DNA of 64,000 nt from positions 36,632-100,631 of the forward strand of contig CAZWMT010000015.1 in the NCBI GenBank assembly GCA_964635055.1. Reading direction: 5' to 3'. The stretch is from an uncultured Microthrixaceae bacterium (GTDB lineage: Bacteria; Actinomycetota; Acidimicrobiia; Acidimicrobiales; DATDAH01). The notes beneath the pieces were generated by a model that saw nothing but the letters and a program-made list of their open reading frames with translations, was not told the origin of the DNA and searched no databases. The position numbers and the translations under genes were made by a program. Shown here one piece after another: positions 3,633 through 48,293 of this stretch (position 1 is the first letter of the stretch; each line of letters opens with the position of its first letter).

Positions 3633-3648
3633 TGACAGTGAGGTGTCA
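3633..3648. promoter_or_regulatory. Candidate operator, palindrome family TGACAGT-NN-ACTGTCA (site 1)
   Basis: TGACAGTGAGGTGTCA lies in the divergent gap between TauD (start 3583, minus strand) and the cupin gene (start 3686, plus strand). Confidence 0.6.
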
Positions 3649-3685
3649 GAATCTTGGGCACGTCGAGGAATCGGAGTGTGATGCC

Positions 3686-4153
3686 ATGCGCAGGTTGTTG
3701 ACCGGGGTCGACGCCAGCGGCCGATCATGCCTCGTCGAAGTCGCCGAGGTCGTGCCCACGCCGCCGTCCGAGGGGGGCCACGGGGTGAACGTGGCACGGG
3801 TGCACGCCACCACACAGAGCCCGCCCCCGCCCCGCCCTCCCGGACTCGGCGATGCCGTCGACGTCCGCCTGACACCGGGAACCCTGCGCTGGATGGTGGT
3901 CGAGCACCCGCCGTACGACCCGGCCGGCCCGCCGTCGACGTCGACCGAGATCCACCACGCCGACGCCCTCCACCTGGTGTTCGTGCACGAAGGGGGCGGC
4001 AACCTGCTCCTCCAGGACGGCGCCCACACCGTGTCCGCCGGCGATCTCATCGTGATGCCAGGGGTCGATCACGCCATGCGGGGCGGCCCGGAGGGCTGCC
4101 GCCTGGTCGTGGTCAGCGTCGGGACGCCGCCGCCTCAGGAAAGCGTGCCCTGA
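3686..4153 (+). CDS. Cupin-domain protein
   Basis: MRRLLTGVDASG... with a cupin-like core: HHADALHLVFVHEGGGNLLLQDGAHTVSAGDLIVMPGVDHAM. Inner ATG chosen because the listed start overlaps the operator. Confidence 0.6.
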   Translation: MRRLLTGVDASGRSCLVEVAEVVPTPPSEGGHGVNVARVHATTQSPPPPRPPGLGDAVDVRLTPGTLRWMVVEHPPYDPAGPPSTSTEIHHADALHLVFVHEGGGNLLLQDGAHTVSAGDLIVMPGVDHAMRGGPEGCRLVVVSVGTPPPQESVP

Positions 4154-6639
4154 GTGCAGGCGTCGGTCGCCGGAGCGGCGACGACGCCGGACTCGATCAG
4201 GTCTTCGATCTCGGCCTCGTCGAACCCGAGCTCGGTCAAGAGGGCACGGCTGTGCTCGCCGTGCTCGCAGAAGGCCGGGGCCCGGCTGGGCGTGTCCGAG
4301 AACGCCAGCACCGGCGCGTAGCGGCGGTAGCGGTCGCCGATGCTCGGGTGCGAGGCGGTCGTGGTCATGGCGATGGCCTTGGCCTGCTCGTCCTCGTAGA
4401 GGAAGGCGTAGTGCGACATGGCGTCGGCCACCACGCAGCCGACGCCGGCGGCGAGCATGTCGGTCTCCCACTGGTGCGCCGTGCGGCCGAGGAAGACCGG
4501 GATCAGGGTCGCCTCGAGCTCGCCGCGGTGCTGGGCGCGGGCGGCGGCAGAGGCGAAGCGGGGGTCGGCGGCGAGGTCGTCCCGGCCGGCGACCCGACAG
4601 AGGGTGGCGAACGACTCGTCGTCCTCGGCGGCGAGCATCACCCAGTGGGGATCGGGGTTCTCGAATGGCGGCCTCGCCACGCCGGCATCCGATGCGCACT
4701 CGTAGAGGCGGTGGGTGGCGCCGGTGCCGAACTGGCGTGGGTCGACCGGCGGTCGCGGTGGCTTGCCCTCGTAGGAGAAGGCGTCGTCGTAGTTGAGGAG
4801 GATGTTGGAGACGATCATCGCCGACTCGACGTCCTGCGCCTCGCCCGTGCGGTGGCGGGCGAAGAGGCCGAGCATCATCGCCGCGGCGTGCCCGGCGGCG
4901 GCGGTGGGGTCGGCGCCGCTCTCGCGCAGCGGCGGGTTGCCCTCACCGGTCTGGTAGGCGGTCGTGCCAGCGAAGGCGGCGATGACCGGGTCGATGGCGG
5001 GCTGCTTGGCGTACGGACCGGCCGACCCGTACGAGGCGGCGTAGTGGTAGACGAGCCCCGGGTTGACCGCCCGCAGCGTCTCGACGTCGATGCCCAGTGC
5101 CTCGGGGACCTTCCCCCGGAAGCTGTGGACGAACAGGTCGGCCTCGGCCACGAGCCGGTGCAGGATGGCCCGGCCCTCCGCGCTCTTCAGATCGAGCGCG
5201 ATCGACTCCTTGCCCGCCATCGCCCGCACCATGTTGTTGTGGCCGAGGGCGTTGACCGGGTCGCCGCCGCCGCGACCGAGGAGGCGGTAGGGGTCGCCGC
5301 GGACGGGCTCGATCTTGATGACCCGAGCGCCGAGCTCGGCGAGCAGCGCCGTGGCGAACGGGGTGGCGTAGTAGTAGGCCGCCTCGACGATGGTGATGCC
5401 GTCGAGCGGCCCGGCCAGCCGGTCGAGGGTCGGCGCCGGCACCGTGATGGGGGTGACCTCGGCGGCGAGCACATCGGCGGTGTCGGCGCCGGGGTCGGGT
5501 GCCGGCCGACGCACCTCGGCCGGTGCCGTGGGGATCTTGGCCAGTGGGCCGATCTGGAGCATCGGGCCGACCCGCGGGTCGTCGAGCTCCACGACCAGGT
5601 CGGTCGCCACCACCTGCGGGTGCCGGAGCGCGTCCTGGGTGGTCTGGATGACGTCGGCGCACACGTTGCCGTTGGCCAGGTAGACCTCGATCCACTCCTC
5701 CGAGGTCTTCTCCTTCATGAGTGCCTGCAGCCGGGTCACCAGCTCGACCTTGGCGTCGTCATCGGGGAACCTCCACGGCGCGCCCTTGAACCGCTCGTCC
5801 TCCCAGATCCAGGAGAAGCCGATGGCCTCGATCCAGGCGGGGAAGAAGTGTGGCTCGGACAGCGAGTGCATGATCCAGCGCCCGTCCTTGCACTCGACGA
5901 GCATCCCCGTGAGGGTGACCTCCCGCGGGTCGCGATGGTGGGCCAGCGGGTTGATGGCGTCGGGCACCGTCTCGGTGGAGGCGGCCCGGTCGACCGGCAG
6001 CTCCTCGCCCTCGCGCCGCAGGTAGCGCACCTGCGGGTTCTGGCGACAAGAGATGGCGATCAGCATGTTGGTGTCGACGTGTTGGCCCCGGCCGGTCAGG
6101 TCGCGGGCCCGCAGGGCGGCGAGGATGCCCTGGGCGGCGAGCATGCCGGCGAAGTAGGAGCCGTCCGGGCAAGACCGGTAGATCGGGCGCTTGCCGTCGC
6201 GCTCCCAGCCGGGCTGGTCGCGGAAGATGCCGGCCTTGGCCATGACCAGGGCGTCGTCGGCCACGACGTCGGCGAACGGCCCCGTCGGCCCGAAGCCGGT
6301 GATGGAGCAGGTCACGAGCGCCGGGTTGACGGCGGCCAGCTCCTCGTGGCCGGCTCCCGCCGCCTGGGCCCGCCCCGGGCCCCAGTCCTCGACGAGCACG
6401 TCGAACCCCGGCACCAGGCGGTGGAGCTCGGCTCGGCCGCCCGCGGTCTCGAGGTCGAGCACGATGCTGCGCTTCCCGCGATCGAGCAGCAGGTGGGCGG
6501 CGATCGGGGAGTGGCCGTCGCCCGCGGGCTCGAAGCGGACGACGTCGGCGCCGAAGTCGGCGAGCACCAGCGTCGCCAGCGAGCCGGCGGCGCCGCGGCT
6601 GCCGTCGAGCACTCGTATCCCTGCACACGCACCCGGCAC
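4135..6639 (-). CDS. Tandem two-domain family III (CaiB/BaiF) CoA-transferase
   Basis: 834 aa. There are two N-terminal-type signatures: IRVLDGSRGAAGSLATLVLADFGADVVRFEP and ITIVEAAYYYATPFATALLAELGARVIKIEP. Each half is about 400 aa. Confidence 0.85.
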   Translation of the reverse strand: MPGACAGIRVLDGSRGAAGSLATLVLADFGADVVRFEPAGDGHSPIAAHLLLDRGKRSIVLDLETAGGRAELHRLVPGFDVLVEDWGPGRAQAAGAGHEELAAVNPALVTCSITGFGPTGPFADVVADDALVMAKAGIFRDQPGWERDGKRPIYRSCPDGSYFAGMLAAQGILAALRARDLTGRGQHVDTNMLIAISCRQNPQVRYLRREGEELPVDRAASTETVPDAINPLAHHRDPREVTLTGMLVECKDGRWIMHSLSEPHFFPAWIEAIGFSWIWEDERFKGAPWRFPDDDAKVELVTRLQALMKEKTSEEWIEVYLANGNVCADVIQTTQDALRHPQVVATDLVVELDDPRVGPMLQIGPLAKIPTAPAEVRRPAPDPGADTADVLAAEVTPITVPAPTLDRLAGPLDGITIVEAAYYYATPFATALLAELGARVIKIEPVRGDPYRLLGRGGGDPVNALGHNNMVRAMAGKESIALDLKSAEGRAILHRLVAEADLFVHSFRGKVPEALGIDVETLRAVNPGLVYHYAASYGSAGPYAKQPAIDPVIAAFAGTTAYQTGEGNPPLRESGADPTAAAGHAAAMMLGLFARHRTGEAQDVESAMIVSNILLNYDDAFSYEGKPPRPPVDPRQFGTGATHRLYECASDAGVARPPFENPDPHWVMLAAEDDESFATLCRVAGRDDLAADPRFASAAARAQHRGELEATLIPVFLGRTAHQWETDMLAAGVGCVVADAMSHYAFLYEDEQAKAIAMTTTASHPSIGDRYRRYAPVLAFSDTPSRAPAFCEHGEHSRALLTELGFDEAEIEDLIESGVVAAPATDACTQGTLS

Positions 6640-6713
6640 GACGTTCCCCCTGTGGCCGATCCGGCGGGCTCGCTGTCCCGACCGAACCCCATGTTAGACG
6701 CCCAATCAAGAAG

Positions 6714-6729
6714 TGACAGTCCGCTGACA
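6714..6729. promoter_or_regulatory. Candidate operator (site 2, degenerate)
   Basis: TGACAGTCCGCTGACA lies in the divergent gap between the CoA-transferase (start 6639, minus strand) and the ACAD gene (start 6744, plus strand). The right arm is imperfect. Confidence 0.45.
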
Positions 6730-6743: not shown

Positions 6744-7937
6744 GTGATCGAGCCGGGGGGAGAAATCGCCGACCTGCGGGGGGCGGTGCGCGCCTGGTGC
6801 GCGGACCACGTCCCCCCGGATTGGCGCCGGGACCTGCGTGGCGTGCCCCACGCGGACCTGGTCGAGTTCCTGCGCTGGTGGGCCACCCAGCTGCGTGACG
6901 GCGGCCTCCTCGCACCGCACTGGCCCAAGGACTGGGGTGGCGGCTACTCCGTCCCCGAGCAGGTGGTGATCGCCGAGGAGCTGGCCCGCGGGAACGTCCC
7001 CCGCAACGCGCTCTTCCACGTGGCCATCTTCAACGTGGCGCCGGCGTTGTTGGCGAGCGCGACGCCGGAGCAGCGTGATCGGTTCCTGCCGGGCATGTGG
7101 AACGGCGAGGTGTGGTGCCAGGGCTTCTCCGAGCCCAACGCCGGGTCCGACCTGGCCAGCCTCCAGACCCGGGCGGTGCGCGACGGCGACCACTACGTCG
7201 TCAGCGGCCAGAAGGTCTGGACCAGCTGGGCCAACGACGCCGACTGGTGCATGCTCCTCTGCCGCACCGACCCGGAGGCATCGAAGCATCGCGGCATCAG
7301 CTGCCTGATCGTCGACATGCACGCCCCAGGGGTCGAGGTGCGGCCCATCAAGCAGATCTGGGGGCCCGCGGACTTCAACGAGGTCTTCTTCGATGACGTG
7401 CTCGTGCCCGTCGACCACCTCCTGGGCCCGGAGAACGAGGGTTGGGGCGTCGCCCAAGGCACCTTGTCCGCCGAGCGGGCCGTCGCCATCCTCGAGGCCA
7501 CCGAGCGGCTCCGCTGCCACGGCATCGAGGCCGCCATCGCCGAGGCCACCGAGTGGCGCCTCGACGACGGGGGGGTGGCGATCGACGACACCCGGGTGCG
7601 TGAGCGGCTCGCCGCCCGCTACGCCGAGATCCAGGTCCTCCGCCACGTGCTCAACGGGATGATCGACGGCATCATCCGTGGCGAGGACGTCAGCGGCACG
7701 TCGTCCGTGATCAAGGTCTTCTACAGCGAGCTGCTGCAGGGGCTGATGCAGGAGGTCACCGACCTGCTGGGCGTGACGGGGCAGGTGGACGGCCCGGTGC
7801 TCGCCTGCTCGGGCTGGGAGACGGGCTTCTGGATGAACGACTACCTCCACTCGTTCGGTTGGCTCATCGGTGGCGGCACCAACGAGATCCAACGGAACCT
7901 GATCGGCGAGCGCATGCTCGGCCTTCCTCGCTCATGA
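6744..7937 (+). CDS. Acyl-CoA dehydrogenase
   Basis: 397 aa. WCQGFSEPNAGSDLASLQTRA, GQKVWTSWA and a C-terminal GGTNEIQRNLIGERMLGLP. Confidence 0.9.
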   Translation: MIEPGGEIADLRGAVRAWCADHVPPDWRRDLRGVPHADLVEFLRWWATQLRDGGLLAPHWPKDWGGGYSVPEQVVIAEELARGNVPRNALFHVAIFNVAPALLASATPEQRDRFLPGMWNGEVWCQGFSEPNAGSDLASLQTRAVRDGDHYVVSGQKVWTSWANDADWCMLLCRTDPEASKHRGISCLIVDMHAPGVEVRPIKQIWGPADFNEVFFDDVLVPVDHLLGPENEGWGVAQGTLSAERAVAILEATERLRCHGIEAAIAEATEWRLDDGGVAIDDTRVRERLAARYAEIQVLRHVLNGMIDGIIRGEDVSGTSSVIKVFYSELLQGLMQEVTDLLGVTGQVDGPVLACSGWETGFWMNDYLHSFGWLIGGGTNEIQRNLIGERMLGLPRS

Positions 7938-9076
7938 GCCTTTCCACCGACGAGCAGGGAGAGCTCCGCTCCACGGCTCGGCGCCTGCTCGAACAGCGGT
8001 CGTCGCCCGAGCAGGTCCGCGCGGCCATCGACGGGCCCGACGGCTACGACGAGGGCCTCTGGGACCAGATGGTGGCGCTGGGCTGGACGTCGATCCACCT
8101 CGACGAGTCGGTCGGCGGCGCCGGGTGCGGGTACACCGACCTGGCCGTCGTGCTGCACGAGCTCGGGCGCGCCATCACGCCGTCGCCCTTCGTGGCGAGC
8201 GCGGTGCTGGCCAGCGGGGCGCTCTCGCTCGCCGACAACGACGCGCTGGCGGCGGACGTCCTCGCATCCCTCGCCGCCGGCGAGTCGAGGGGCGCCGTGG
8301 CGATGGCCGGCCTCGGCGGGTCGTACCAACACGACCAGCTCACCACGCAGTGGCAACCGGACGCCGGCGGCGGTGTCCGCCTCGACGGCGCGTCGGGCTT
8401 CGTGGTCGAGGCCGACCTGGCGGACCTCCTCGTCGTCGTGGCCCGGGGTGCGGACGGCGCCAGCGCCGTGGCCGCCGTCGATCCCGCGGCGCCCGGGGTG
8501 GGAATCGACCGCCTCGAAACCGTCGACCGGACCCGCCGGCTGTTCACGGTGACCTTCGCCGACGTGGCCGTCGCCGCCGATCGCCTGCTGAGCGAGCCGG
8601 GCCCTGCGAGCGTTCGGCTGGCCGAGCGCGTGCTCGCACTGGGCGTCGTCGCGGCGGCCTGTGACGCCACGGGTGTCGCCGAGCGAGCACTGGAGCGCAC
8701 GGTCGAGTACGCCGAGGAGCGGACCCAGTTCGGCAAGCCGATCGGCTCCTTCCAGGCGGTCAAGCACCACTGCGCCAACATGGCCATCGCGGTCGAGGCC
8801 AGCCGCGCCGCGACCCGGTCGGTGGCCGAGGCCCTGGACGGGGATCCCGCCGATTGGGCGACCGCCGCCTCGATCACCGCCTCGTACGTCGGGCCGGCGT
8901 GCGCGCAGGCGTGCGCGCTGGCGCTGCTCGTCCACGGCGGCATCGGCTTCACGTGGGAGCAGGACTCCCACCTCTACCTGAAGCGCTCGAAGCTCGATGA
9001 GGTCCTGTTCGGCACACCGTCCTGGCACCGCCGCCGCCTCGCCAACGCCGTGTTCCCGACGCTGGTCGCGCCGTGA
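7934..9076 (+). CDS. Acyl-CoA dehydrogenase (second subunit-like partner)
   Basis: ATGA overlap with the upstream ACAD. MSLSTDEQGELRSTARRLLE...; FGKPIGSFQAVKHHCANM. The adjacent pair suggests a heteromeric ACAD. Confidence 0.85.
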   Translation: MSLSTDEQGELRSTARRLLEQRSSPEQVRAAIDGPDGYDEGLWDQMVALGWTSIHLDESVGGAGCGYTDLAVVLHELGRAITPSPFVASAVLASGALSLADNDALAADVLASLAAGESRGAVAMAGLGGSYQHDQLTTQWQPDAGGGVRLDGASGFVVEADLADLLVVVARGADGASAVAAVDPAAPGVGIDRLETVDRTRRLFTVTFADVAVAADRLLSEPGPASVRLAERVLALGVVAAACDATGVAERALERTVEYAEERTQFGKPIGSFQAVKHHCANMAIAVEASRAATRSVAEALDGDPADWATAASITASYVGPACAQACALALLVHGGIGFTWEQDSHLYLKRSKLDEVLFGTPSWHRRRLANAVFPTLVAP

Positions 9077-9122
9077 TCGCGCCGACCGCAGTCCTGACCG
9101 CACCACCCGATGGGGGAGACCG

Positions 9123-10349
9123 ATGACCGAGACGTGGTCGGGGCGCAAGCCCCGCGAGCTCGACGAGGAGACGATCGCCGACGTCCGCCGGCGCATCGGC
9201 ATCCCGGTGCGCTACTCACCCCGCGCCCACAACGAGGTGTCCTCGACGGACTCGTTCCGCCACTTCGCCCGTGCCTACGGCGACGGCAACCCGCTCTACA
9301 ACGACCCCGGCTACGCGGCGGCGTCCTCCTGGGGCGGATCGATCGCCCCGCCGCTGTACCCGTTCGTCTCGGGGATCAGCCGGAAGGTCGACCTGTCCGA
9401 CGCCGAGAAGGCGGTCATGAAGGAGGGCGACCCCCTCGCGGGGATCGGTCAGTACATGTGCGGCGAGCGCTGGCTGTTCCCCAAGCCGATCCGGGCCGGC
9501 GACGTCCTCTGGCAGTCCCAGACCCTCCACGCCGCCGAGCTCCGGCCGAGCTCGTTCGGGGGCGGGACCGGCGCGTTGGTGTCACACCGGGTGGCGTGGG
9601 AGGACGAAGGCGGCGCGCCCTACGCCTTCCGCTTCCTCGACTTCTGGCACGCCGATCGGGAGAAGTCGAGCAAGGCGGGCAAGAACCGTGACATCGAGCG
9701 GCCGTCGTACTCCGCCGACGACATCGAGCGCATCGACGCGATCTACGAGGCCGAGACGCTCCGCGGCGGGTCGCCGCTCACGATCGGGGACGTGGCGGTG
9801 GGCGACGAGCTGGGCCCCATCGCCAAGGGCCCGCTCGGCGTCACCGACATGGTCGCGTGGCACGTCGGCGTGGGCTGGGGCATGTACGGCGGGGGCACCT
9901 CGAAGCTGGCCTACGACAACCGCAAGCGGGTCCCCAAGTTCTACGTGCAGACCCCGATCGGCACGTGGGACTCGGCGCAGCGCTGCCACTGGGACGACGA
10001 GTGGGCGCAGCGGATGGGCCATCCCGGGGCCTACGACTACGGCGTGATGCGGACCAACTGGATGGCGCACCTCGTCACGAACTGGATGGGCGACGACGCC
10101 TGGATCTGGAAGCTCTCCGCTTCGGTGCGGAAGTTCAACTACCTCGGTGACTGGCACCTCGTCACCGGCGTCGTGCGCGAGGTCGACCGGTCCACGAACA
10201 CCGTCACCATCGACGTGTCCGGGCAGAACCAGCGCGGCGAGGTCACCTGCGACGCCCGGGTGGTCGTGATCCTGCCGTCGGCCGGGGGCGGTCACGCCGA
10301 GATCCCGTACTACGACCCCGACCAGGTGCCCGAGGCGTCGGCCCCGTGA
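9123..10349 (+). CDS. MaoC-like / FAS1-type double hot-dog acyl dehydratase (enoyl-CoA hydratase)
   Basis: 408 aa, RBS GGGGGAG. The N-terminal half carries FRHFARAYGDGNPLYNDPGYA; the C-terminal half is hot-dog-like (NYLGDWHLVTGVV). Confidence 0.75.
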   Translation: MTETWSGRKPRELDEETIADVRRRIGIPVRYSPRAHNEVSSTDSFRHFARAYGDGNPLYNDPGYAAASSWGGSIAPPLYPFVSGISRKVDLSDAEKAVMKEGDPLAGIGQYMCGERWLFPKPIRAGDVLWQSQTLHAAELRPSSFGGGTGALVSHRVAWEDEGGAPYAFRFLDFWHADREKSSKAGKNRDIERPSYSADDIERIDAIYEAETLRGGSPLTIGDVAVGDELGPIAKGPLGVTDMVAWHVGVGWGMYGGGTSKLAYDNRKRVPKFYVQTPIGTWDSAQRCHWDDEWAQRMGHPGAYDYGVMRTNWMAHLVTNWMGDDAWIWKLSASVRKFNYLGDWHLVTGVVREVDRSTNTVTIDVSGQNQRGEVTCDARVVVILPSAGGGHAEIPYYDPDQVPEASAP

Positions 10350-14342: not shown

Positions 14343-14358
14343 TGACACTACACTGTCA
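14343..14358. promoter_or_regulatory. Candidate operator (site 3)
   Basis: TGACACTACACTGTCA. It contains TACACT, a TANNNT -10-like hexamer. It lies in the divergent gap between the SDR and amidohydrolase genes. Confidence 0.6.
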
Positions 14359-15775: not shown

Positions 15776-15843
15776 CCCGTGGCGAGGCGGCGCGAGCCCA
15801 CCTTCGGCGACGCTCGCCTCGAGGCCCGTCGCGGATTCCGCAC

Positions 15844-19450: not shown

Positions 19451-19461
19451 GAGGACACCCC

Positions 19462-33403: not shown

Positions 33404-33437
33404 GGGCCGACCGTGACCCCGCCCGCGGTCCTCCGTC

Positions 33438-33487
33438 GTTCTGGCTCCCGTTTCGATCGCCCGAGCGGTCGAAACGGGAGCCAGAAC
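33438..33487. repeat. Hairpin repeat family, copy 3 (intergenic)
   Basis: GTTCTGGCTCCCGTTTCGA, loop TCGCCCGAGCGG, then TCGAAACGGGAGCCAGAAC. Relative to copy 2, an A-T pair in the stem is swapped to T-A on both arms. Confidence 0.85.
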
Positions 33488-33504
33488 GGATCGGTTCGAG
33501 GCTG

Positions 33505-36416: not shown

Positions 36417-36447
36417 GCCGCCCGCCGACCCACGGCAGGATGCGGGG

Positions 36448-37230: not shown

Positions 37231-37234
37231 GCCC

Positions 37235-38134: not shown

Positions 38135-38222
38135 CCATGACCGCCGATCTCCCTCGTCGCCGGCACTCGCCACACGACGTCCGTCGTACGACACCCCAAC
38201 TGGTCCCACGCAAGGAGCACCC

Positions 38223-39485: not shown

Positions 39486-40264
39486 TAGCCGCGCAGGTCG
39501 TCCGCGCTGCGGGAATGCGGTGGCGCGGCGCAGTGGACGGCGAGCGACGAGGGCTCCCGGTCGTACCGGGCGAGGGCGGCGTGCACCTTCTCCAACAGTT
39601 CGGCCAGGCGGTCGGTCGACATCGCCGCGGTGATCCAGCCGTCGCCGAGCCGGGCGGCCCGGTCGATGGCGGCGCCGCTGTGGCCGCCGACCAGGATGGG
39701 GATAGGCCGCTGCACGGGTCGAGGCTCGGGGTCCATGGGGGGGAGGTCCCAGAACTCCCCGTGGAACTCCACGTGGTCGCCCGGCGCGGTCCAGATCGCC
39801 CGGAGGAGGGCGATGGCCTCGTCGACCCGGGCCCCCCGCCGGTCCCACGCCTCGTTCATGGCGTCGGCCTCCTCCTTCAGCCAGCCGGCGCCGACCCCGA
39901 ACACGAGGCGACCGTTCGCGTACTGGTCGATGGTCGCCAGCTGCCGGGCCAGCAGCACGGTGTTGCGGATGGGCAGGACGGCCACGGCGCTGCCGATGGT
40001 GATGCGCTCGGTGATCCCGGCGACGAAGGCCAGCGTGGTCATCAGCTCGTAGTTCGGGGACAGCAACTCGGACACCGCGTCGTCGTCGATCTTGGCCGGC
40101 TCCCGGGGCAGCACGTACTCGGACTCGACCCGTTGGGGCATCACGACGTGGTCGACGCCCCAGACCGAGTCGTACCCCAGTTCGTCCGCGGCGACGCACC
40201 ACTCGCGCACGAACGCCGGCGTCGCCCGCCGGCCGGTGTGGGGGATGCGGACGCCGATCTCCAC
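39392..40264 (-). CDS. LLM-class F420/flavin-dependent oxidoreductase
   Basis: MEIGVRIPHTG...LGYDSVWGVDHVV...GRLVFGVGAGWLKEE. Confidence 0.85.
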   Translation of the reverse strand: MEIGVRIPHTGRRATPAFVREWCVAADELGYDSVWGVDHVVMPQRVESEYVLPREPAKIDDDAVSELLSPNYELMTTLAFVAGITERITIGSAVAVLPIRNTVLLARQLATIDQYANGRLVFGVGAGWLKEEADAMNEAWDRRGARVDEAIALLRAIWTAPGDHVEFHGEFWDLPPMDPEPRPVQRPIPILVGGHSGAAIDRAARLGDGWITAAMSTDRLAELLEKVHAALARYDREPSSLAVHCAAPPHSRSADDLRGYQDLGVHTLQVAIDGIDDLRHFADEVLPHLR

Positions 40265-40867: not shown

Positions 40868-41680
40868 TCAGCCCCTGGGCTGCACACGGCCGCCGGTCGA
40901 GTCCTCCGGGATGGTGGCCACCATGCCGCCGTCCACCAGGACGTCGCTGCCGGTCATGAAGGACGCGCCGTCCGAGGTGAGGAAGGCGACCACCGCGGCG
41001 ACCTCCTCCGGCCGGCCCCGGCGGCCGAGCGGGCTGTCCTTGATGATGTCCGCCATGATCGGGTGGCGGGACTCGTCGAGGCGGTTCATGGGCGTGTCGT
41101 TGATGCCGGGAGAGACCGAGAGGATGCGGGCGCCCCGGGCGCCCCAGGCGGCGCACAGCCGTCGGGCGGTGCGGTGGACGCCCCGCTTGGACACCGGGTA
41201 GGCGAACTGCGGCGCGTCGGGGTCGAGCCCGAGCTCGACGATGGCGTCGAAGAAGCGGTCGGACAGCGGGTCGTCCAGCACGGCCATCAGCGCGGGGTTG
41301 TCGGGCACCCGGTAGCCCGACATCGACGCGAACAGGACGGCCACCGAGCCGGGACCGAGCTTCGGCTCGACGGCGGCGAGCACCCGGGCGGTGCCGATCA
41401 GGTTCACCTCGAAGATGCGCCGACCGTCGGCCATGGAGCCGGAGAGGCCGGCGGTCTGCACGAGGGCGCCGAGCTCGTCGATGCCGGCGACGAGGGCGTC
41501 GACCTGGCCTTGATCGGTGACGTCGCAGACGGCGGCGGTCACGTGGTCGCCGAGCTCCGCAGCGACTGCCTCGACCGCCTCCAGGTTCCGGTCGGCGACG
41601 ACGAGGGAACCCCGGTCGGCGATTGCCCTCGCCACGGCCGTGCCCATGCCCGAGCCCGCGCCGATCACCACGTTCGTCAT
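40868..41680 (-). CDS. SDR family oxidoreductase
   Basis: VVIGAGSGMGTAVARAIA; YPVSKRGV; C-terminal GSDVLVDGG. Confidence 0.85.
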   Translation of the reverse strand: MTNVVIGAGSGMGTAVARAIADRGSLVVADRNLEAVEAVAAELGDHVTAAVCDVTDQGQVDALVAGIDELGALVQTAGLSGSMADGRRIFEVNLIGTARVLAAVEPKLGPGSVAVLFASMSGYRVPDNPALMAVLDDPLSDRFFDAIVELGLDPDAPQFAYPVSKRGVHRTARRLCAAWGARGARILSVSPGINDTPMNRLDESRHPIMADIIKDSPLGRRGRPEEVAAVVAFLTSDGASFMTGSDVLVDGGMVATIPEDSTGGRVQPRG

Positions 41681-42718
41681 TGCCGCTCCTCGACCTGGGT
41701 CTGCACGGTCTCATGTTGCCCCTGCGCCGAGGGCGGTGGCGCGGTGGACAGGTGGCGCTCGAGCTCGTCGAGCAGGGCGCCGACCGCCTCGAGCGCGCGG
41801 AGCGAGTCGTTGAGGTGGGTGCAGCTCGCCGGGCCGGTCAACGTGGCCGACACCCGGTCCCGGAGGCCGATCGTGGGGGTGCCGACGACGCTTGCGGCGC
41901 TGGCCGCGGCGGCGGGGCACTCCGGGAAGGGCAGCCGCCCGGGTACGGCGCCGGCCGCCACGAACCGGTGGGTGTCCCGATCCAGCTCGGCCTGCACGCC
42001 GTACTCGTGGACCGCGCTGGCGACGCCGCTGCCGTCGACGTAGCTGTCCTGCAGGTAGGTGTCGACGTGCGCGGCGCCGTCCTCGATCCACAGGTCGAGC
42101 CGGCGCAGGCGGCGCGTGGACCGAGCCACGTCGGGAGCGAGGGGGTGCCAGGCGACGGGGTCGTCGTCCCGCGACGCACGAGCGGGTGGCGGGCCGATGG
42201 TCAGCGGCGGGCCCAGGTCGGTGAAGCCCTGGACGGCGAAGCCGTCGGCCACCCAGCCGGCGCAGACGTCCACGGGAGGCATCCGACCGGGAGCCCCCGA
42301 GGCTGACCCCCTCGGCCCGCAGCACCCGCCCGCTCAGCAGCAGGGCGATCGGGAGGTCGTCGAGCACCTGGTGGCGCAGGGTGTGCGCGGCCCGGTCGTC
42401 GGGGAGGAGCTCGCCCATGGCCCGGCGGAAGCCGGAGTAGGCGACGGTCCCGACGAGGGTGTCGCCGCCCGGGAGCACCGGCTCGGCGTCGAGGGAGGCG
42501 ATCCGGCCGTCCGCGAAGTCCACCTCGACGTCGATGCGGACCTCCGCCAGCACCATCGTGTCGCCGTCGGGGGTGGTGAGGAGGTCACGACCGAGACAGC
42601 GGGCCAGCACCGGGCCGTCCAGGCCTTGCGGGCGGGTGGACACCTGGGAGGTGGTCCGGCGGATCGAGCCGGGCCGCCGCGCTGGTGTCGCGGTTGGCAG
42701 GGCGGGGTTCGATCCCAT
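41677..42718 (-). pseudogene. DUF2889-like two-repeat protein, split by an apparent frameshift near 42.28-42.34 kb
   Basis: The N-part (frame of ORF 41711..42832) reads IRRTTSQVSTRP...RDLLTTPDG...LDDLPIALLLSG. The C-part (ORF 41677..42282) reads DVCAGWVADG...RRLDLWIEDG...CPAAAASA...SCTHLND. The family call is from motif memory. Confidence 0.5.
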
Positions 42719-42763
42719 CGACGAGCACGCTACGGCACCGGATCGCTGGCCGCGCGGCCAAAG

Positions 42764-42779
42764 TGGCAGTAGACTGTCA
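42764..42779. promoter_or_regulatory. Candidate operator (site 8)
   Basis: TGGCAGTAGACTGTCA contains TAGACT (TANNNT) and ends 3 nt before the Rieske ATG (42783). It lies in the divergent gap with the DUF2889 gene. Confidence 0.6.
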
Positions 42780-42782
42780 CTT

Positions 42783-43100
42783 ATGGCGTTCGAGCGGGTC
42801 TGTGCCGCCGCCGACCTCGTAGAAGGCGACATGGCCGCCTTCTACGTCGAGGGCGTCGAGGTGCTCGTCGTGCGCGACAAGGGCGGCGAGGTCCGCGCCA
42901 TGGACGGGATCTGCCCGCACGAGGACTACCCCTTGGTGCACGGTGACTTCGACGGCACCGTCCTCTACTGCGCCAACCACGGGTGGTGCTTCGACACCGC
43001 CACCGGCCGTGGCATCAACCCACCGAGCAGCCGGCTCGAGCAGTTCGCCGTGAAGATCGACCGCGACGCGATCCTCGTCGACCCCGACGCCGGCCCATGA
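42783..43100 (+). CDS. Rieske [2Fe-2S] ferredoxin-like protein
   Basis: 105 aa. CPHEDYPL...CANHGWCF matches the CxH...CxxH Rieske ligand pattern. Confidence 0.85.
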   Translation: MAFERVCAAADLVEGDMAAFYVEGVEVLVVRDKGGEVRAMDGICPHEDYPLVHGDFDGTVLYCANHGWCFDTATGRGINPPSSRLEQFAVKIDRDAILVDPDAGP

Positions 43101-44002
43101 CCACGCTCGAGGGGCCCCGCTGCGCCGCCTGGGCGCGGGAGGTGGGCCTCGACCCGGCGGGCACGGCGCCCCGCACGGACGTGTTCGTCCTCGTGGAACA
43201 CCCGCTCCCGTGGCCGTCGGCGATCAGCGACGACCCCTTCCTGGCGGAGATCGAGCGGGTGGCTCGAGAAGCGGCGGGCCCGGAACGGACCGTGCGCGTC
43301 CAGGCCCTCGCTGTCGATGCGCCGACGACGGTCCGCAAGGTCGTGGTCTTCGCCACGGGACGCGGGCCCGTGCGCGGCTACGGCCGACTCGAGGGCGAGG
43401 GCCGGGCGGACGAACGGGTCACGATCGTCTCGACGCTCGTCGCCGCCGACCCGCCACCACCCACCCGCGGCGGCGTCACCGACGTGCTCGTGTGCACCCA
43501 CGGGACCCGCGACAGCTGTTGCGGATCACTGGGAACCCGGCTCTGGCAGACCGCGGAGCGGCGAGGCGTGCACCTCTGGCGCACGTCCCACACCGGTGGT
43601 CATCGGTTCGCGCCCACCGCCATCACGTTCCCGGACGGCTGCTACTGGGCCTTCCTCGACCCCGCCAGCCTTCAAGGGATCGTGGATCAGACGCTTGCGC
43701 CCGACCTCGCGGTGACGCACCTGCGCGGCTGCGCGGCCTTCTCGCCGGTGGTCCAGGTTGCCGACCGGGCGATCTTCGCTTCGGAGGGATGGGACTGGCT
43801 GGCGTGCGCTCGATTCGGGGAGCAGCGGGGCCCGCGCCGCGTCGAGATCTGCTTCGAGACCGCGGCGCGGGTTCGGGGCGGTTACGACGTGTGCGTCGAG
43901 AACCCACGGCAGATGCCGGTGCCGGACTGCGGCCACCTGCCCGGCCCGGAGTCCAAGGCGCAAGTCGAGTGGGCGGTCACGCGCGTCCAGGCCTGGTCGT
44001 AG
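43097..44002 (+). CDS. Sucrase/ferredoxin-like (thioredoxin-like [2Fe-2S]) family protein
   Basis: ATGA overlap with the Rieske gene. VCTHGTRDSCCGSLG and SHTGGHRFAP motifs. Confidence 0.75.
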   Translation: MTTLEGPRCAAWAREVGLDPAGTAPRTDVFVLVEHPLPWPSAISDDPFLAEIERVAREAAGPERTVRVQALAVDAPTTVRKVVVFATGRGPVRGYGRLEGEGRADERVTIVSTLVAADPPPPTRGGVTDVLVCTHGTRDSCCGSLGTRLWQTAERRGVHLWRTSHTGGHRFAPTAITFPDGCYWAFLDPASLQGIVDQTLAPDLAVTHLRGCAAFSPVVQVADRAIFASEGWDWLACARFGEQRGPRRVEICFETAARVRGGYDVCVENPRQMPVPDCGHLPGPESKAQVEWAVTRVQAWS

Positions 44003-44070
44003 CAGGGGCCGCGTGAACAGGCCCTACCTTGCACGGTGCACGACGGGATTCGACCTCAGGGGGATTGACG

Positions 44071-45018
44071 ATGAGTGAGCTGCGATTCGACGGGAAGTCC
44101 GTGGTGGTCACCGGCGCAGGCCGAGGGGTGGGTCGCTCGCACGCCCTGCAACTCGCGTCGAGGGGCGCGAGTGTGGTCGTGGCTGACCTCGGCGGCGCTC
44201 TGGAGGGCGGTGGCTCGTCGGCCGAACCAGCGCACCGGGTCGTCAAAGAGATCGAGGAGGCCGGGGGACAGGCGGTTGCCTGTCACGCGTCGGTGGCGGA
44301 GGAGGACGGCGCCGCGTCGATCATCCAGGCCGCGATCGACGCCTTCGGCAAGGTCGACGTCGTCATCAACAACGCCGGCATCGCCGCCCCGGACTGGTTC
44401 GAGGACACGCCGCTCGACCGGGTGCGCAAGATGATCGAGGTCCACTACCTGGGGACGGTGTACGTCACCCGGGCGGCCTGGCCCCACATGATGGAGGCGG
44501 GTGGCGGCCGCATCGTCAACACCTGCTCCGAGGCGGCGCTGGGGTTCGTGCCGAAAGGTGCGGCCTACGGAGGCGCCAAAGGGGCGGTGCTGGCCTTCAC
44601 ACGTGAGCTCGCGCTCGAAGCGCCGCGCCACGGCATTCGGGTCAACGCGGTGATGCCGCGGGCCCAGACGAGACTGTCGGCCCCCGAGGTCATGGCGCAC
44701 ACCTACGACGTGCCCGTGGAGCTCTTCGACTCGGGCTCTATGGACCAGTACGCGCCGGAGCTCGTGTCACCGGCCGCGGTCTATCTAGCGCACGACTCCT
44801 GTCCTCTCAACGGTGAGGTCCTCATCTCTGGTGGGGGACAGGTGATGCGCATGGCTTTCGTGTGCAACGAGGGCATTGCGAACGAAGCCATGACTGCAGA
44901 GGACGTCGCTGCGGGCCTGGACAAGATCATGGACCTCTCCGACGGCCACGAGGTGAAGGTCGAGACGCTGGCCGGCGACGAGATCTCCGCGGCCCGTGAG
45001 GAGGCGGGTACCGCCTGA
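44071..45018 (+). CDS. SDR oxidoreductase, MFE-2/Hsd4A-like type
   Basis: GKSVVVTGAGRGVGRSHALQLASRGASVVVADLGGALEGGGSS...EIEEAGGQAVA. Confidence 0.85.
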   Translation: MSELRFDGKSVVVTGAGRGVGRSHALQLASRGASVVVADLGGALEGGGSSAEPAHRVVKEIEEAGGQAVACHASVAEEDGAASIIQAAIDAFGKVDVVINNAGIAAPDWFEDTPLDRVRKMIEVHYLGTVYVTRAAWPHMMEAGGGRIVNTCSEAALGFVPKGAAYGGAKGAVLAFTRELALEAPRHGIRVNAVMPRAQTRLSAPEVMAHTYDVPVELFDSGSMDQYAPELVSPAAVYLAHDSCPLNGEVLISGGGQVMRMAFVCNEGIANEAMTAEDVAAGLDKIMDLSDGHEVKVETLAGDEISAAREEAGTA

Positions 45019-45050: not shown

Positions 45051-45920
45051 TCAGCCCTTCGTGTAGCGGGGGATCTGCTCCTCGGTGAGGACGGGCATCG
45101 GTGCCGCCACCTTGCGCAGAGTGCGGGCGGGCGCTTGCTCGGTCACGTTCGGCCGGCCGTGCTGCACGGCGAGGTTGTCCCACACGACGAAGTCGCCGGC
45201 CCGCCACTCGTGGTCGAGTCGGACGTCGTCTGCGTACATCACCGCGAACAACTCCTCCAGCAGCGGCTCGCTCTCGTCCTCGGGCACGTCGACGATTGCC
45301 TTCGTCATCTGCTCGCACGCGTACAGCAGCGACCGGCCCGTGCGCGGGTGCCGCAGTTCGAGGGGCTTGACCGTGCTCGGTGGATCCACCACCTCGGTGA
45401 GGATCACGTCCGTCATGTCCCCTCGCCGTACCTCGCCGGCGGTGTGCAGTGCGTGACGGCCGCGGATGCGGCCGTGGAGGTTGTCGCCCATCGCGGACCA
45501 GGCCCAGGCGGTGCTGACGAACGTCGTCGGCGCGGTTGGAGGCTCCACCTCCACCGCGTAGAGCGAGACGAGCTCACAGGGCTGCTCGGCCCACATCATG
45601 TCGGCGTGGAACTGCAGGCGACCGAACGGTGCCGCCGCCCGCTCACGACGGTTCGAGATGTACCAGCGGTCCTCCCGCGGCGTGCCCGGGCCGAGATCCT
45701 TCTGGATCAGCACCTCGGCCATGCGGAGCTGACCGGCGTGACTCAGCTCGAGATCCCGGAACACGAGGACGCCGTACCGGTCGAACGCCGTCTGCAGGTC
45801 CCGGCGCGCACCCGCGTCGTCGAGCAGCGACTCGTCGAACCGCGACACTTCGGCGCCGACGACCGGGCTGAGGGGTGCGATCTCGATCGATCCCCCTGAG
45901 GACACTTCGCTCGAGGTCAT
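45051..45920 (-). CDS. TauD/TfdA family dioxygenase (paralog 3)
   Basis: ATGA overlap with the P450 stop. IEIAPLSPVVGAEVS; LQFHADMMWAE; WDNLAVQHGR. The rest of the 812-aa listed ORF is the wrong frame of the P450 gene. Confidence 0.85.
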   Translation of the reverse strand: MTSSEVSSGGSIEIAPLSPVVGAEVSRFDESLLDDAGARRDLQTAFDRYGVLVFRDLELSHAGQLRMAEVLIQKDLGPGTPREDRWYISNRRERAAAPFGRLQFHADMMWAEQPCELVSLYAVEVEPPTAPTTFVSTAWAWSAMGDNLHGRIRGRHALHTAGEVRRGDMTDVILTEVVDPPSTVKPLELRHPRTGRSLLYACEQMTKAIVDVPEDESEPLLEELFAVMYADDVRLDHEWRAGDFVVWDNLAVQHGRPNVTEQAPARTLRKVAAPMPVLTEEQIPRYTKG

Positions 45921-47125
45921 GCCTCCACCACCAGGTGCTCCCAGCCCCGGGTGTTGATCCCGGAGACCATCGAGGACGCCTCCCGGTCGATGGTCCAGCC
46001 CGGGAGGGTGTCGAGGAGGACATCGATGGCGACGCGCATCTCGAGCCGGGCCAGAGAGGCGCCCAGGCAGAAGTGGGGCCCGAAGCCGAACGAGAAGTTC
46101 TGCCCACCGGATCGTCGGATGTCGAAGACGTCGGGCTCCGGGAACTGCCGCTCGTCCCGGTTGGCGGCGGGTGGCAGCACGACCATCGCGCTCCGGGCGG
46201 GCACGACGGTGCCGTGCAGCTCGATGTCCCGGGTCACCCAGCGGGCGGCGTGATACGACACCGCCTCGTAGCGGATGATCTCCTCGACGGCGGTCGCCAT
46301 CAGGCCCCGGTCGGCCCGCAGCGCCTCGCGTTGGTCCGGGTGGTCCCCCAGCGCGCGCATCGCCCATCCGAGGGCCATGGCCGTCGTGTCGGATCCGGCC
46401 GAGGCGATCAGGGTCAGGTAGGTGAGGATCTCGTCCCGACGGAGCGTCCGGGTGGCGCCCGTCTCGTCGGTGAGCTCCATGTGGAGCAGTTGCGTCATGA
46501 CGTCGTCGGTGGGGTGGTTCACCCGCTCGTCGAGGTAGCGGTCGAACCACACGGCGCTTTCGGCGATCCCGGCGAGGGCATCGGCGTCCGGATCGTCGGA
46601 GTCGGTGTGCATCGTCCGGTGGAACACGGCGTGCAACTCGGCCTGGTCCGCCTTGGGCAGGCCCAGCAGCATGCCGATGACCTGTACCGGGATCTGGTTG
46701 GCGACCTCCGCCATGAAGTCGAAGCGCGACCGGCCCCGGATCGACTCGACCACCTCCTCGCAGAGGTGGCGGATCTGCTCCTCCAGCCCGTTGACCGCTC
46801 TCGGCGTGAACAGGCGGGACACGAGGGCCCGGTGCATCGTGTGTTGGGGTGGGTCCTCGCAGATGAACAGGCCGTCGGGCATCTCGAGGCCCAGGTCGAC
46901 GCACGCCTTGAGGACCTCGTAGGTCATGCCGTTGCCGGAGATGAACGTGTCCCGGTCGGCGAGCACCTGCGCAACGTCGGCGTAGCGGCTCACCGCGAAG
47001 AAGTCGTACTGCTCGCTCCGGTAGAGCGGCATCTCGTCGCGGAGGCGACGCAGCACCTCGTACGGGGCGGCGAACGTGTCGCGGTCGTAGAGGTCGAACT
47101 CGACATCGGAGGTTGTCAGGGCCAT
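45917..47125 (-). CDS. Cytochrome P450
   Basis: Heme loop FSFGFGPHFCLGASLA; AGSDTT I-helix; EEIIRY (ExxR). Start MALTTSDVEFDLYD behind a GGGGAGG RBS. Confidence 0.92.
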   Translation of the reverse strand: MALTTSDVEFDLYDRDTFAAPYEVLRRLRDEMPLYRSEQYDFFAVSRYADVAQVLADRDTFISGNGMTYEVLKACVDLGLEMPDGLFICEDPPQHTMHRALVSRLFTPRAVNGLEEQIRHLCEEVVESIRGRSRFDFMAEVANQIPVQVIGMLLGLPKADQAELHAVFHRTMHTDSDDPDADALAGIAESAVWFDRYLDERVNHPTDDVMTQLLHMELTDETGATRTLRRDEILTYLTLIASAGSDTTAMALGWAMRALGDHPDQREALRADRGLMATAVEEIIRYEAVSYHAARWVTRDIELHGTVVPARSAMVVLPPAANRDERQFPEPDVFDIRRSGGQNFSFGFGPHFCLGASLARLEMRVAIDVLLDTLPGWTIDREASSMVSGINTRGWEHLVVEA

Positions 47126-47181
47126 GAAGGGCCTCCCCGAGAGCTTCGGCTGGGTGGTGTCGCTGCGAACCAGATCCAATG

Positions 47182-47197
47182 CTGACACTAGACTGCC
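47182..47197. promoter_or_regulatory. Candidate operator (site 9)
   Basis: TGACACTAGACTGCCA contains TAGACT. It lies in the divergent gap between the P450 (start 47125, minus strand) and the SDR gene (start 47277, plus strand). Confidence 0.55.
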
Positions 47198-47276
47198 AAA
47201 TTGGCGAGAGCGGGTGTACCGCGCCAGGGGCCGACGCCGGGGGAGATCGAGGCGTCGCTCGCCGGACGGAGGATCC

Positions 47277-48206
47277 ATGATCGACTTCACCGACCAGTCC
47301 GTGATCGTGACCGGCGCCGGGCGTGGGCTCGGGAGGGAGTATGCGCTCGAGCTCGCGAGGCGCGGTGCTCGCGTCGTGGTCAACGACGTCGGTGGTTCGA
47401 TGAGTGGCGAAGGCATCGACCGGTCCGTGGCCGAAGCGGTCGTCGACGAGATCCGAGGGGTCGGGGGTGAGGCGGTCGTTTCCCACCATTCAGTCGACTC
47501 GCCGGAGGGGGCACGTGCGATCGTCGCCGCCGCCACGGATGCGTTCGGTCGGCTCGACGCCGTGATCAGCAACGCGGGCATCTACGGGATGCATCCCTTC
47601 GAGGAGCTCTCGGTCGAGCAATGGCGTCGGATGCTCCAGGTCCACCTCGACGGAGCGTTCTTCCTCAGCCAACCGGCGCTCGAGGTGATGTGCGCCCAGG
47701 GATCCGGCCGGCTCGTGTTCATCGCGTCGAACATCGGGGCGTTCGGTCAGGAGCATGCGGCCCACTACGCCGCAGCCAAGGGCGGGATCATCGGGCTGAC
47801 GAACGCGCTCGCCGTCGAATACGCACCTCACAGCATCAAGGTCAACGCGGTCCTACCCGTCGGACGGACCCGGATGATGACCGACTCGATGGGCGAGCGA
47901 GCGCCGAATCCCGTGCTCGACCAGTTCTTCGACGCGACGACGGTGGAGCGCATCGTCCCGCTCGTCGTCTACCTCGCCAGCGGTGCCTGCTCCTTGAGCC
48001 ACCACTGCTTCTCAGCGGTGGCCGGCCGTTACGCACGCGTCTTCCTCGGCCTCGGCGAAGGGTGGGTCGCCGACGGGGCCGTCGACGCGACCGCTGAGGA
48101 CATCGCCGAGCACCTCGACGAGATCACTGCGACCGAGCCGTTCTCGGTCCCGCTGTCGGTGGCAGATGAGATCTTCACGGTGCTCGGCCAGATCGGCTTG
48201 ATCTGA
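47277..48206 (+). CDS. SDR oxidoreductase, MFE-2/Hsd4A-like type
   Basis: QSVIVTGAGRGLGREYALELARRGARVVVNDVGGSMSGEG...EIRGVGGEAV. Confidence 0.85.
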   Translation: MIDFTDQSVIVTGAGRGLGREYALELARRGARVVVNDVGGSMSGEGIDRSVAEAVVDEIRGVGGEAVVSHHSVDSPEGARAIVAAATDAFGRLDAVISNAGIYGMHPFEELSVEQWRRMLQVHLDGAFFLSQPALEVMCAQGSGRLVFIASNIGAFGQEHAAHYAAAKGGIIGLTNALAVEYAPHSIKVNAVLPVGRTRMMTDSMGERAPNPVLDQFFDATTVERIVPLVVYLASGACSLSHHCFSAVAGRYARVFLGLGEGWVADGAVDATAEDIAEHLDEITATEPFSVPLSVADEIFTVLGQIGLI

Positions 48207-48277
48207 CGGCGGTCCGGGACCGAGCGGGGCGTCGAAGGTCAGATCCCTTGCGGAGGTGTCTTGCCAGGGTTAGATTC

Positions 48278-48293
48278 TGACAGTCGACTGACG
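48278..48293. promoter_or_regulatory. Candidate operator (site 10)
   Basis: TGACAGTCGACTGACG lies 44 nt upstream of the SBP start and is preceded by TTGCCA...TAGATT promoter-like hexamers. Confidence 0.55.

Follow-up and report, generated by a model that had tools for sequence, protein, structure and literature searches.

A recurrent 16-bp palindrome as the probable operator of an undescribed TetR-family regulator in a catabolic gene island of an uncultured Microthrixaceae bacterium

A stretch of 64,000 nucleotides from an uncultured Microthrixaceae bacterium (contig CAZWMT010000015.1 of assembly GCA_964635055.1, hereafter the window) was analyzed with respect to a palindrome, TGACAGT-NN-ACTGTCA, that recurs in its intergenic gaps, and to a gene for a TetR-family regulator, 25117–25731, that lies among these gaps. 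An earlier note, made from the sequence alone, had proposed the palindrome as the operator of an undescribed local catabolic regulon, and the present analysis supports this proposal. We estimate a probability of about 0.78 that the palindrome is the operator of this TetR protein and that the protein acts as a metabolite-released repressor, switching the whole island by promoter occlusion. The palindrome follows the orthologues of the TetR gene and not its paralogues, and it does so in two actinobacterial classes. Further support comes from its near-exclusive intergenic placement and from its conservation as a block in promoter alignments. Nor does the motif seem to be in print: a full-text literature search, whose coverage leaves out most subscription journals, turned up neither its written forms nor its six commonest exact 16-mers in any paper.

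The whole window was searched for TGACAGTNNACTGTCA with at most two mismatches. The search returned exactly ten sites, which are those of the earlier note, versus a mean of 0.05 matches in dinucleotide-preserving shuffles (n = 100), where no shuffle held more than one match and ten were reached in 0 of 100. The sole coordinate error in the note was at 47182, which was off by one and should read 47183. As the G+C content of the window is about 70% and mechanical open reading frame (ORF) lists were uninformative, the gene map was built from third-position G+C (GC3), and several starts were then corrected by eye and by homology. The intergenic share of the window on the GC3-based map is 8.5%. All ten sites are intergenic on the corrected map and none is coding, as had been claimed, and shuffled intergenic segments (n = 300) gave 0 matches to the palindrome. 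The claim of a divergent placement holds as well, since seven of the nine site-bearing gaps separate divergent genes. A symmetrised position weight matrix (PWM) trained on the ten sites scores them at 24–35 bits and adds one weaker site, 25780–25795, in the promoter of the TetR gene; no further match above 8 bits was found anywhere in the 64-kb window. The extended consensus is the palindrome with an A/T-rich flank on either side. Beyond a core of about 22 bp the flanks are dissimilar between sites (mean identity 32%), so a dispersed repeat (MITE, REP or mobile-element copy) was ruled out as their source. The TetR gene and the 11 operators are as follows.

25117–25731, minus strand: gene of the TetR-family regulator (204 aa) that is proposed to bind the palindrome
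3633–3648: operator between a TauD gene (2702–3586, minus) and a cupin gene (3686–4153, plus)
6714–6729: operator between a fused CoA-transferase III gene (4135–6612, minus) and operon 6744–12562 (plus)
14343–14358: operator upstream of a short-chain dehydrogenase/reductase (SDR)–dienelactone hydrolase (DLH) unit (12585 to about 14300, minus); kept in the related locus L081
14389–14404: operator at the predicted start point of operon 14432–21841 (plus); kept in L081, L085 and L086
22813–22828: operator, a perfect palindrome, between a TauD gene (21876–22757, minus) and a SnoaL_4–SDR unit (22874–24181, plus)
25031–25046: operator abutting the start of an SDR gene (24210–25028, minus); no plus-strand unit
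25780–25795: weak second operator, TGGCAGTGGCGTGTCG (16.7 bits), within the -10/-35 spacer of the predicted promoter of the TetR gene
25826–25841: strongest operator, TGACAGTCGAGTGTCA (PWM 35.3 bits), covering the predicted start of the divergent promoter for the gene at 25855 and the PrpD/aconitase-like operon
42764–42779: operator between a DUF2889–SDR–SnoaL_4 unit (40267 to about 42718, minus) and a Rieske ferredoxin–Suc_Fer-like–SDR unit (42783–45018, plus)
47183–47198: operator between a cytochrome P450 (P450)–TauD unit (45051–47179, minus) and an SDR gene (47277–48206, plus)
48278–48293: operator at the predicted start point of the ATP-binding cassette (ABC) operon 48337–53153 (plus); no minus-strand unit

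The spacing of the two sites is 46 bp, start to start and centre to centre, in both double-site gaps (14343/14389 and 25780/25826). The TetR gap of the relative L082 has the same spacing (8510/8556), and visual comparison of the two window gaps revealed no likeness outside the sites. Cooperative binding may be the reason for this spacing.

Linkage of the palindrome to the TetR lineage was assessed in 80 loci from species-representative genomes, 80 from metagenomes and several long contigs of closer relatives (20-kb slices), which are cited by their L numbers where they have to be told apart. A TetR protein was regarded as orthologue-like at an identity of at least 43% over at least 150 residues, and sites of at least 15 bits were counted in an upstream window of 300 bp. 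Such a site was present at 28 of the 41 orthologue-like loci versus 3 of the 102 paralogue loci (Fisher p = 1.3 × 10−16). The upstream sites occur in Acidimicrobiia metagenome-assembled genomes (MAGs), Actinocorallia libanotica, Mycobacterium europaeum, M. scrofulaceum and Mycolicibacterium, while at the Frankia and Modestobacter loci the sites adjoin other genes (e.g., thiolase-like), not the TetR upstream window. The orthologue loci (522 kb) hold 61 sites of at least 18 bits, 60 of them intergenic, and the genes flanking the sites are TetR (25 times), divergent P450 (8 times, mainly in mycobacteria), amidohydrolase_2 (5 times), a helix-turn-helix (HTH) protein (4 times) and thiolase-like genes (3 times). 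Six sites of at least 18 bits were found in the paralogue loci from the genome collection (62 loci, an estimated 1.1 Mb or so), and four of these are one conserved Nocardioides site.

The same palindrome emerged when the PWM was not used. All 5-mer inverted repeats with a spacing of 0–10 nt were counted in 43 orthologue upstream regions, the window being excluded. The ranking was led by TGACA-N6-TGTCA (20 of 43), GACAG-N4-CTGTC (16) and ACAGT-N2-ACTGT (14), all three of which are one palindrome, and the next patterns, ATGAC-N8-GTCAT and TATGA-N10-TCATA (8 each), are this palindrome extended into its flanks. No unrelated inverted repeat reached the listing threshold of 5 in these regions. Orthology tracking, taxonomic spread, the PWM-free count and the intergenic restriction together argue for a strong link between this TetR lineage and the palindrome. 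The link does not require the HTH protein encoded beside TetR, which neither the mycobacterial loci nor L086 have.

The geometry of promoter and operator is conserved. Footprint alignments were made for the TetR-side gap from seven genomes (61–90% protein identity) and for the amidohydrolase-operon gap from four; conservation in them is confined to the operator, the -35 box and a -10 hexamer of the form TANNNT. The TetR-side gap has four conserved blocks: the strong operator 25826, which is invariant as a block in the seven genomes; TGTCAAGG, which is invariant and reads TTGACA on the opposite strand; an operator-adjacent TANNNT on the divergent strand (TAAAGT, TAATGT, TAATCT, TAAGGT, TATATT, TATTGT); and a TANNNT (TAGGGT, TATCGT, TATGGT, TAGGCT) that precedes the start codon of TetR by about 41 nt. 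The following promoter is predicted in this gap.

25798–25826, plus strand: predicted sigma-70-type promoter, TTGACA-17-TAAAGT, with 10 of 12 consensus matches (0.1 expected)

Its -35 box is invariant and its -10 is a TANNNT in six relatives. Because the last base of TAAAGT is the first base of operator 25826, the predicted start point at about 25833 lies inside the operator, 22 nt before GTG 25855 and ahead of a GGGGGA ribosome-binding site. This layout, with the -10 hexamer (TAAAGT, TAGAGT or TAGATT) at the first base of the operator and the start point inside it, recurs and is conserved. The amidohydrolase-operon gap reads TTGCGC or TTGCAC, 17 nt, TAGAGT or TAAAGT and then operator 14389 in the four genomes, and the transporter promoter, TTGCGG-17-TAGATT, ends 1 nt before operator 48278. 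Site 6714 sits in the -35/-10 spacer, and a TATCAT directly after it puts the predicted start point at GTG 6744. An internal TAGACT or TAGTGT in sites 42764 and 47183 puts the predicted start at the start codon, which for site 42764 (TAGACT) is ATG 42783. At least one predicted core promoter is overlapped by the site in every divergent gap.

The earlier note had further read the sites as overlapping the -10 region and the start of leaderless or short-leader mRNAs, citing TANNNT hexamers within them. An internal TANNNT is present in four of the ten sites, which is roughly the level given by base composition, and the central dinucleotide across 59 sites is most frequently CG; the palindrome itself was therefore rejected as the carrier of the -10, while the overlap of the operator with the -10/start region was retained. 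The distances of 2–3 nt between a site and the codons at 25028 and 42783 were found as described. Leaderless mRNAs are plausible for four to six units (ACAD 6744, encoding an acyl-CoA dehydrogenase, Rieske 42783, DUF2889 at about 42718, SDR 25019/25028 and possibly P450), but the best-footprinted promoters have leaders of 22–54 nt with Shine-Dalgarno sequences. At site 25031, whose geometry is repeated in L082 (TetR 90% and SDR 81% identical to those of the window), both genomes have NACAAT, 7 nt and then an in-frame GTG/ATG at codon 4, so the true SDR start is perhaps 25019, with a leaderless mRNA. The annotated ATG 25028 of this SDR may itself belong to the -10-like hexamer (CACAAT; CATAAT in L082, 16518–16545).

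The suggestion that two sites flanking the TetR gene reflect autoregulation stood only in part. Site 25031 belongs to the promoter of the following gene (SDR). The start point covered by site 25826 is that of the divergent promoter, and from the predicted start point of the TetR gene itself this site is about 66 nt away, on the upstream side. What autoregulation there is would depend on the weak site 25780 in the -10/-35 spacer of the TetR gene; the -10 of this gene, a conserved TANNNT (TAGGGT, 25773–25778, minus), abuts the site, which is identical in L082 and has a near-consensus counterpart at the equivalent position in L085. Because the gene's own promoter site is weak, autoregulation is perhaps slight.

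The start points corrected on the gene map are those of the minus-strand SDR (about 14300), of DUF2889 (about 42718), of the divergent neighbour of TetR (GTG 25855) and of the solute-binding lipoprotein (ATG 48337). The 11 operators lie in nine intergenic gaps, and there is a site at the 5′ end of every transcription unit from 2.7 to 53.2 kb. The set headed by sites amounts to about 15 units and about 44 genes, and includes the following operons and gene run.

6744–12562, plus strand: operon with ACAD, ACAD, MaoC-like hydratase and fused CoA-transferase (Pfam)
14432–21841, plus strand: operon with amidohydrolase_2, enoyl-CoA hydratase (ECH), ACAD, acyl-CoA ligase, CoA-transferase (and luciferase-like monooxygenase, LLM)
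48337–53153, plus strand: operon with solute-binding lipoprotein, ABC permease/ATPase and ATPase
25855–40052, plus strand: gene run with no internal operator, presumably controlled from site 25826
25855–40052, first part: HTH protein (332 aa), PrpD, aconitase-like large and small subunits, PrpD, amidohydrolase_3
25855–40052, second part: DUF35–thiolase, amidohydrolase_2, SDR, HIBADH-like, amidohydrolase_2, 140-aa ORF

The run 25855–40052 is syntenic with TetR in L082, L085, L086 and L168 and would be co-transcribed. The oxidative members of the gene set are three TauD-type dioxygenases, a P450, a Rieske ferredoxin and many SDRs. Family III CoA-transferases, ACADs, hydratases, DUF35/thiolase-like proteins and an acyl-CoA ligase are CoA-linked, and SnoaL-like proteins, four amidohydrolase_2 proteins, PrpD/aconitase-like proteins and an ABC importer complete the set. 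Pfam agreed with the labels given in the earlier note (TauD/cupin, CoA-transferase/ACAD, SDR/amidohydrolase_2, TauD/SnoaL, TetR, DUF2889/Rieske and P450/SDR), except that 'ParB-like' for the neighbour of TetR was not established. The paired ACADs, the MaoC-like double hot-dog protein and the thiolase-like protein with a DUF35/ChsH2-type OB protein (6744–9076 and 27–1642) recall the beta-oxidation modules for steroid side chains (ChsE/ChsH/Ltp2) and for benzylsuccinate (Bbs), and the family III CoA-transferases fit this likeness. No enzyme diagnostic of the substrate was found among the window genes.

The TetR protein has the features of its family, namely a TetR_N HTH (Pfam PF00440, E = 7 × 10−17, residues 27–68), here followed by TetR_C_14, a helical two-domain fold of about 200 residues and, in silico, a palindrome near its own or the divergent gene. 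Its AF2 model (pLDDT 88) is all-helical with 11 helices, and the best 50 matches in a Foldseek search of the PDB were all TetR-family proteins. The nearest solved relatives of the model are 2rae, 2dg7, MftR, SCO3201 and the acyl-CoA-bound Thermus thermophilus FadR, with Bacillus FadR and KstR further down, at identities of 16–27%. All of the nearest solved relatives with a known effector (MftR, T. thermophilus FadR, B. subtilis FadR and KstR) are acyl-CoA sensors. A database search gave 970 matches, most of which are metagenomic proteins with no name; of the named sources, Acidimicrobiales is the closest. Nothing but short Logan contigs carries the exact protein, indicating that the organism is uncultured.

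Among the known systems, MftR (Rv0691c/MSMEG_1420) is a TetR-family repressor of mycofactocin biosynthesis that is released by long-chain acyl-CoAs. It shares the TetR_C_14 C-terminal class with the window TetR, of which it is the best NCBIfam match and one of the top structural neighbours (8x0a, TM-score 0.72–0.80). Its half-site is TGGCA, as compared with TGACA here, and TGGCA/TGCCA variants are present in window sites 25780, 42764 and 47183. However, the MftR operator ahead of mftA, T-N2-GGCA-N5-TGCC-N2-A (PMC8728441), has a palindrome spacing one base shorter (N5) than the window motif (N6), and an MftR-type TGGCA-N5-TGCCA does not occur in the window. The two proteins are only 22% identical, and the window TetR scores 81.4 bits against the MftR equivalog TIGR03968, below its cut-off of 224.9. 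In addition, no radical-SAM or mycofactocin-related Pfam domain was found among the about 55 window genes scanned, and MftR has one known operator versus 11 here.

KstR and KstR2 are TetR repressors of actinobacterial steroid catabolism with CoA-thioester inducers, and their short palindromes stand in many intergenic gaps, often divergent ones. The logic proposed for the window is theirs, with one TetR repressor, a repeated intergenic palindrome and control over many clustered genes for CoA-dependent enzymes and oxygenases; the KstR structures are distant matches of the window TetR. Nevertheless, the operators of KstR and KstR2, TnnAACnnGTTnnA and AnCAAGnnCTTGnT, have 0 matches each in the window, and the score against the KstR equivalog NF033703 is 31 bits with a cut-off of 280, which bears out the earlier note in setting the motif apart from both. 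The window genes also lack a Pfam signature of the steroid ring-opening core (KshA-type large Rieske oxygenase, KstD, HsaC).

The FadR proteins of T. thermophilus and Bacillus (YsiA) are neighbours of the window TetR in full-length sequence and in structure (3ang/3anp and 3whb/3whc). They repress several beta-oxidation operons via a repeated palindrome and are released by acyl-CoA, as depositor titles also state, and their operators differ from the window palindrome. The identity is about 18–25%, and the window regulon consists mainly of oxygenases, SDRs and amidohydrolases, not of classic fatty-acid beta-oxidation genes. By sequence profile the closest solved relatives are 2dg7 (SCO0337), 2rae (Rhodococcus RHA1) and 2of7 (E-values of 10−22 to 3 × 10−19). 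In fold, 2dg7 and 2rae are similar (TM-score 0.74–0.86) and 2of7 less so (0.55–0.58). These proteins are 24–26% identical to the window TetR and, as structural-genomics entries with no function, operator or ligand attached, they add no functional information. KstR, KstR2, MftR, FasR, FadR and others were rejected as the identity of the window TetR, as all fall far below the NCBIfam cut-offs. By analogy, the protein probably works like KstR, FadR and MftR, as a multi-operator repressor of CoA-linked catabolic genes, although it belongs to none of their orthologous groups. It appears to represent an uncharacterised TetR subfamily with a well-defined predicted operator that is conserved across classes, and to control, in this genome, a catabolic island of unusual size and unusual enzyme content. 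As such it is an undescribed member of a familiar type of system and would not surprise a specialist in bacterial regulation.

In the mechanism that we propose, a TetR dimer would sit on each operator, one dimer per 16-bp site being assumed. At the best-resolved promoters the operator would reach from the last -10 base over the transcription start, and at the others it would fill the -35/-10 spacer, so that bound TetR would keep RNA polymerase off the promoter. We infer repression by occlusion because a bound dimer would overlap a core promoter at every site. A pathway metabolite, most likely a CoA thioester, would bind the C-terminal domain and release the repressor, whereupon the whole island would be switched on together, and the TetR gene itself to a lesser degree. 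The CoA thioester is a reasonable guess drawn from the acyl-CoA-sensing neighbours and from a regulon rich in CoA-ester enzymes.

A different factor could bind the palindrome, with TetR 25117 being merely one of its targets. The candidates would be the HTH protein (25855–26853), the second TetR of the window (59520–60110) or an unlinked regulator. The HTH protein adjoins TetR in the Acidimicrobiia loci L001, L002, L082 and L085 and has two weak HTH matches, yet the motif remains beside TetR orthologues that lack this protein (L086, mycobacterial and Actinocorallia loci). The second TetR is unrelated (21% identity), there is no site near it, and neither the motif nor a clear inverted repeat was found in its gap, so it was rejected as the binder. 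As the presence of the motif follows TetR orthology (p = 10−16), we regard another binder as very unlikely. That the motif is no regulator site at all but a promoter-associated sequence or a small dispersed repeat is barely credible. The half-site TGACA does resemble the -35 box TTGACA, and the T preceding site 14389 even completes it, but the strict dyad symmetry with its fixed 6-nt spacing, the conservation across classes specifically beside one TetR lineage and the unrelated sequence beyond the core all argue otherwise, and the conserved promoters have separate -35 boxes, with the palindrome at -10/+1.

Simple occlusion might also be the wrong mode of action, if TetR were an activator or dual regulator at some promoters, such as those with the site ahead of the -35 box, or acted through pairs of sites by cooperativity or looping. 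The distance from site to start codon varies from 2 to about 100 nt, the strong site 25826 is remote from the TetR gene's own start point, and the exact 46-bp spacing of both double-site gaps, likewise in L082, would suit such a mode. We nevertheless consider it unlikely, since the operator overlaps the -10/+1 region at the footprinted promoters and a core promoter in each divergent gap, and most characterised TetR-family proteins are repressors (PMC8728441).

Some observations weigh against TetR as a repressor acting at all these operators. Thirteen of the 41 orthologue-like loci have no good upstream site; some of these may be paralogues, or have a wrongly placed gene start or an operator that has diverged, as in the TGTCA...TGACA variant of L001/L002. 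The PWM applied to the related loci was trained on the window and is thus partly circular, a problem that the PWM-free count addresses. Site 25780 has four mismatches to the consensus, several internal gaps of 100–200 nt carry no site, the operon extents being assumed, and the CoA-thioester ligand leans only on structural neighbours at 22–26% identity. Finally, the host is uncultured and represented by metagenomic and Logan contigs only.

A wider interpretation, to which we give an even chance, is that TetR and its operator form an ancient pair kept from Acidimicrobiia to Mycobacteriales and Frankiales. In uncultured soil Acidimicrobiia the pair would be a KstR-like master switch of a pathway of about 50 kb and 44 genes for a lipid-like or alicyclic substrate, with its unusual mix of three TauD-type dioxygenases, four amidohydrolase_2 proteins, a PrpD/aconitase-like module and fused family III CoA-transferases. 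Non-tuberculous mycobacteria would have rewired it onto a locus of P450, AveC-like, luciferase-like monooxygenase and fused ACAD genes. If this is true, the regulon would be a guide to a new catabolic pathway and to a new effector-responsive switch.

In any case, the analysis provides a concrete, testable pair of regulator and operator for a TetR subfamily that is common in soil metagenomes, where most of its members are unnamed. The operator shows which genes belong together and is the most direct handle on the pathway of this uncultured Acidimicrobiia genome. As operator-bearing orthologues exist in the culturable M. scrofulaceum, M. europaeum and Actinocorallia libanotica, the prediction can be tested by ordinary genetics; Frankia loci carry sites as well. 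The 16-bp operator, the repressor and an inducer could possibly serve as a biosensor part. The general view of how TetR regulators work is unchanged by the finding.

Several loci of related genomes merit a description of their own. In M. scrofulaceum (L018, 718–11652) and also in L006, L014, L016 and L098, four to five sites stand within about 11 kb, beside a divergent P450, two AveC-like genes, a luciferase-like monooxygenase, a nitroreductase, a fused 716-aa ACAD and a thiolase-like gene. The gene content of the mycobacterial loci differs from that of the window while the operator is the same. L001 (9831/9848) and L002 (4812/9828/13575), from Acidimicrobiia MAGs with a TetR 53–54% identical, have swapped half-site cores, TGTCAGT-NN-ACTGACA, which suggests that operator position 3 and the recognition helix have co-evolved. 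The sequence TGTCAGTNNAGTGACA is conserved among Nocardioides and related genomes about 2.3 kb upstream of a paralogous TetR (L037 7677, L044 7699, L060 7695, L078 1913). The paralogues beside it have an identity of 39–44%, with an N-terminal match only, and the sequence is perhaps the operator of a related regulator encoded nearby.

The HTH protein 25855–26853 (plus) belongs to a conserved family of 313–332 aa with an invariant D-G-x-H-R motif and two HTH-like segments; in several Acidimicrobiia its gene stands between the TetR gene and the PrpD operon. The Pfam matches at E ≤ 1 are weak HTH ones only, a PDB profile search gave weak matches (E of about 0.4) to the ParB-domain nuclease 5k5a and to SbnI, and a single-sequence AF2 model has a pLDDT of 48. 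This protein could act as a second regulator of the island. Its gene contains a 15-nt tandem repeat (26499–26557, 3.9 copies, 95% identity) encoding DGKLA-type repeats, which are absent from the four aligned homologues.

A megablast of 20–30 kb against PLSDB gave no match, and a plasmid origin is not backed. The genes at 27–2683 precede the first site and have their promoter outside the window. At the other end, the last site, 48278, heads the ABC operon ending at 53153, and transposase-like genes begin at 53.5 kb. These genes (HTH_32/HTH_21 and an rve_3 integrase core) and a DUF3800 gene, at 53527–56694, separate the regulon from a second transporter locus, and the genes at 56918–58248 gave no Pfam match. 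In the second locus, the second TetR gene (59520–60110, minus) is divergent from a second Peripla_BP_6/ABC transporter operon (60307–64000, plus). Within the regulon, the DUF2889 gene (41677–42718, minus) changes its reading frame near 42290–42300: the frame whose third-position G+C is about 1.0 is at first that of ORF 41711–42832 and then that of ORF 41677–42282. The homologue in L087 is one unbroken product of 329 aa, and the break in the window is either an assembly indel or the mark of a pseudogene.

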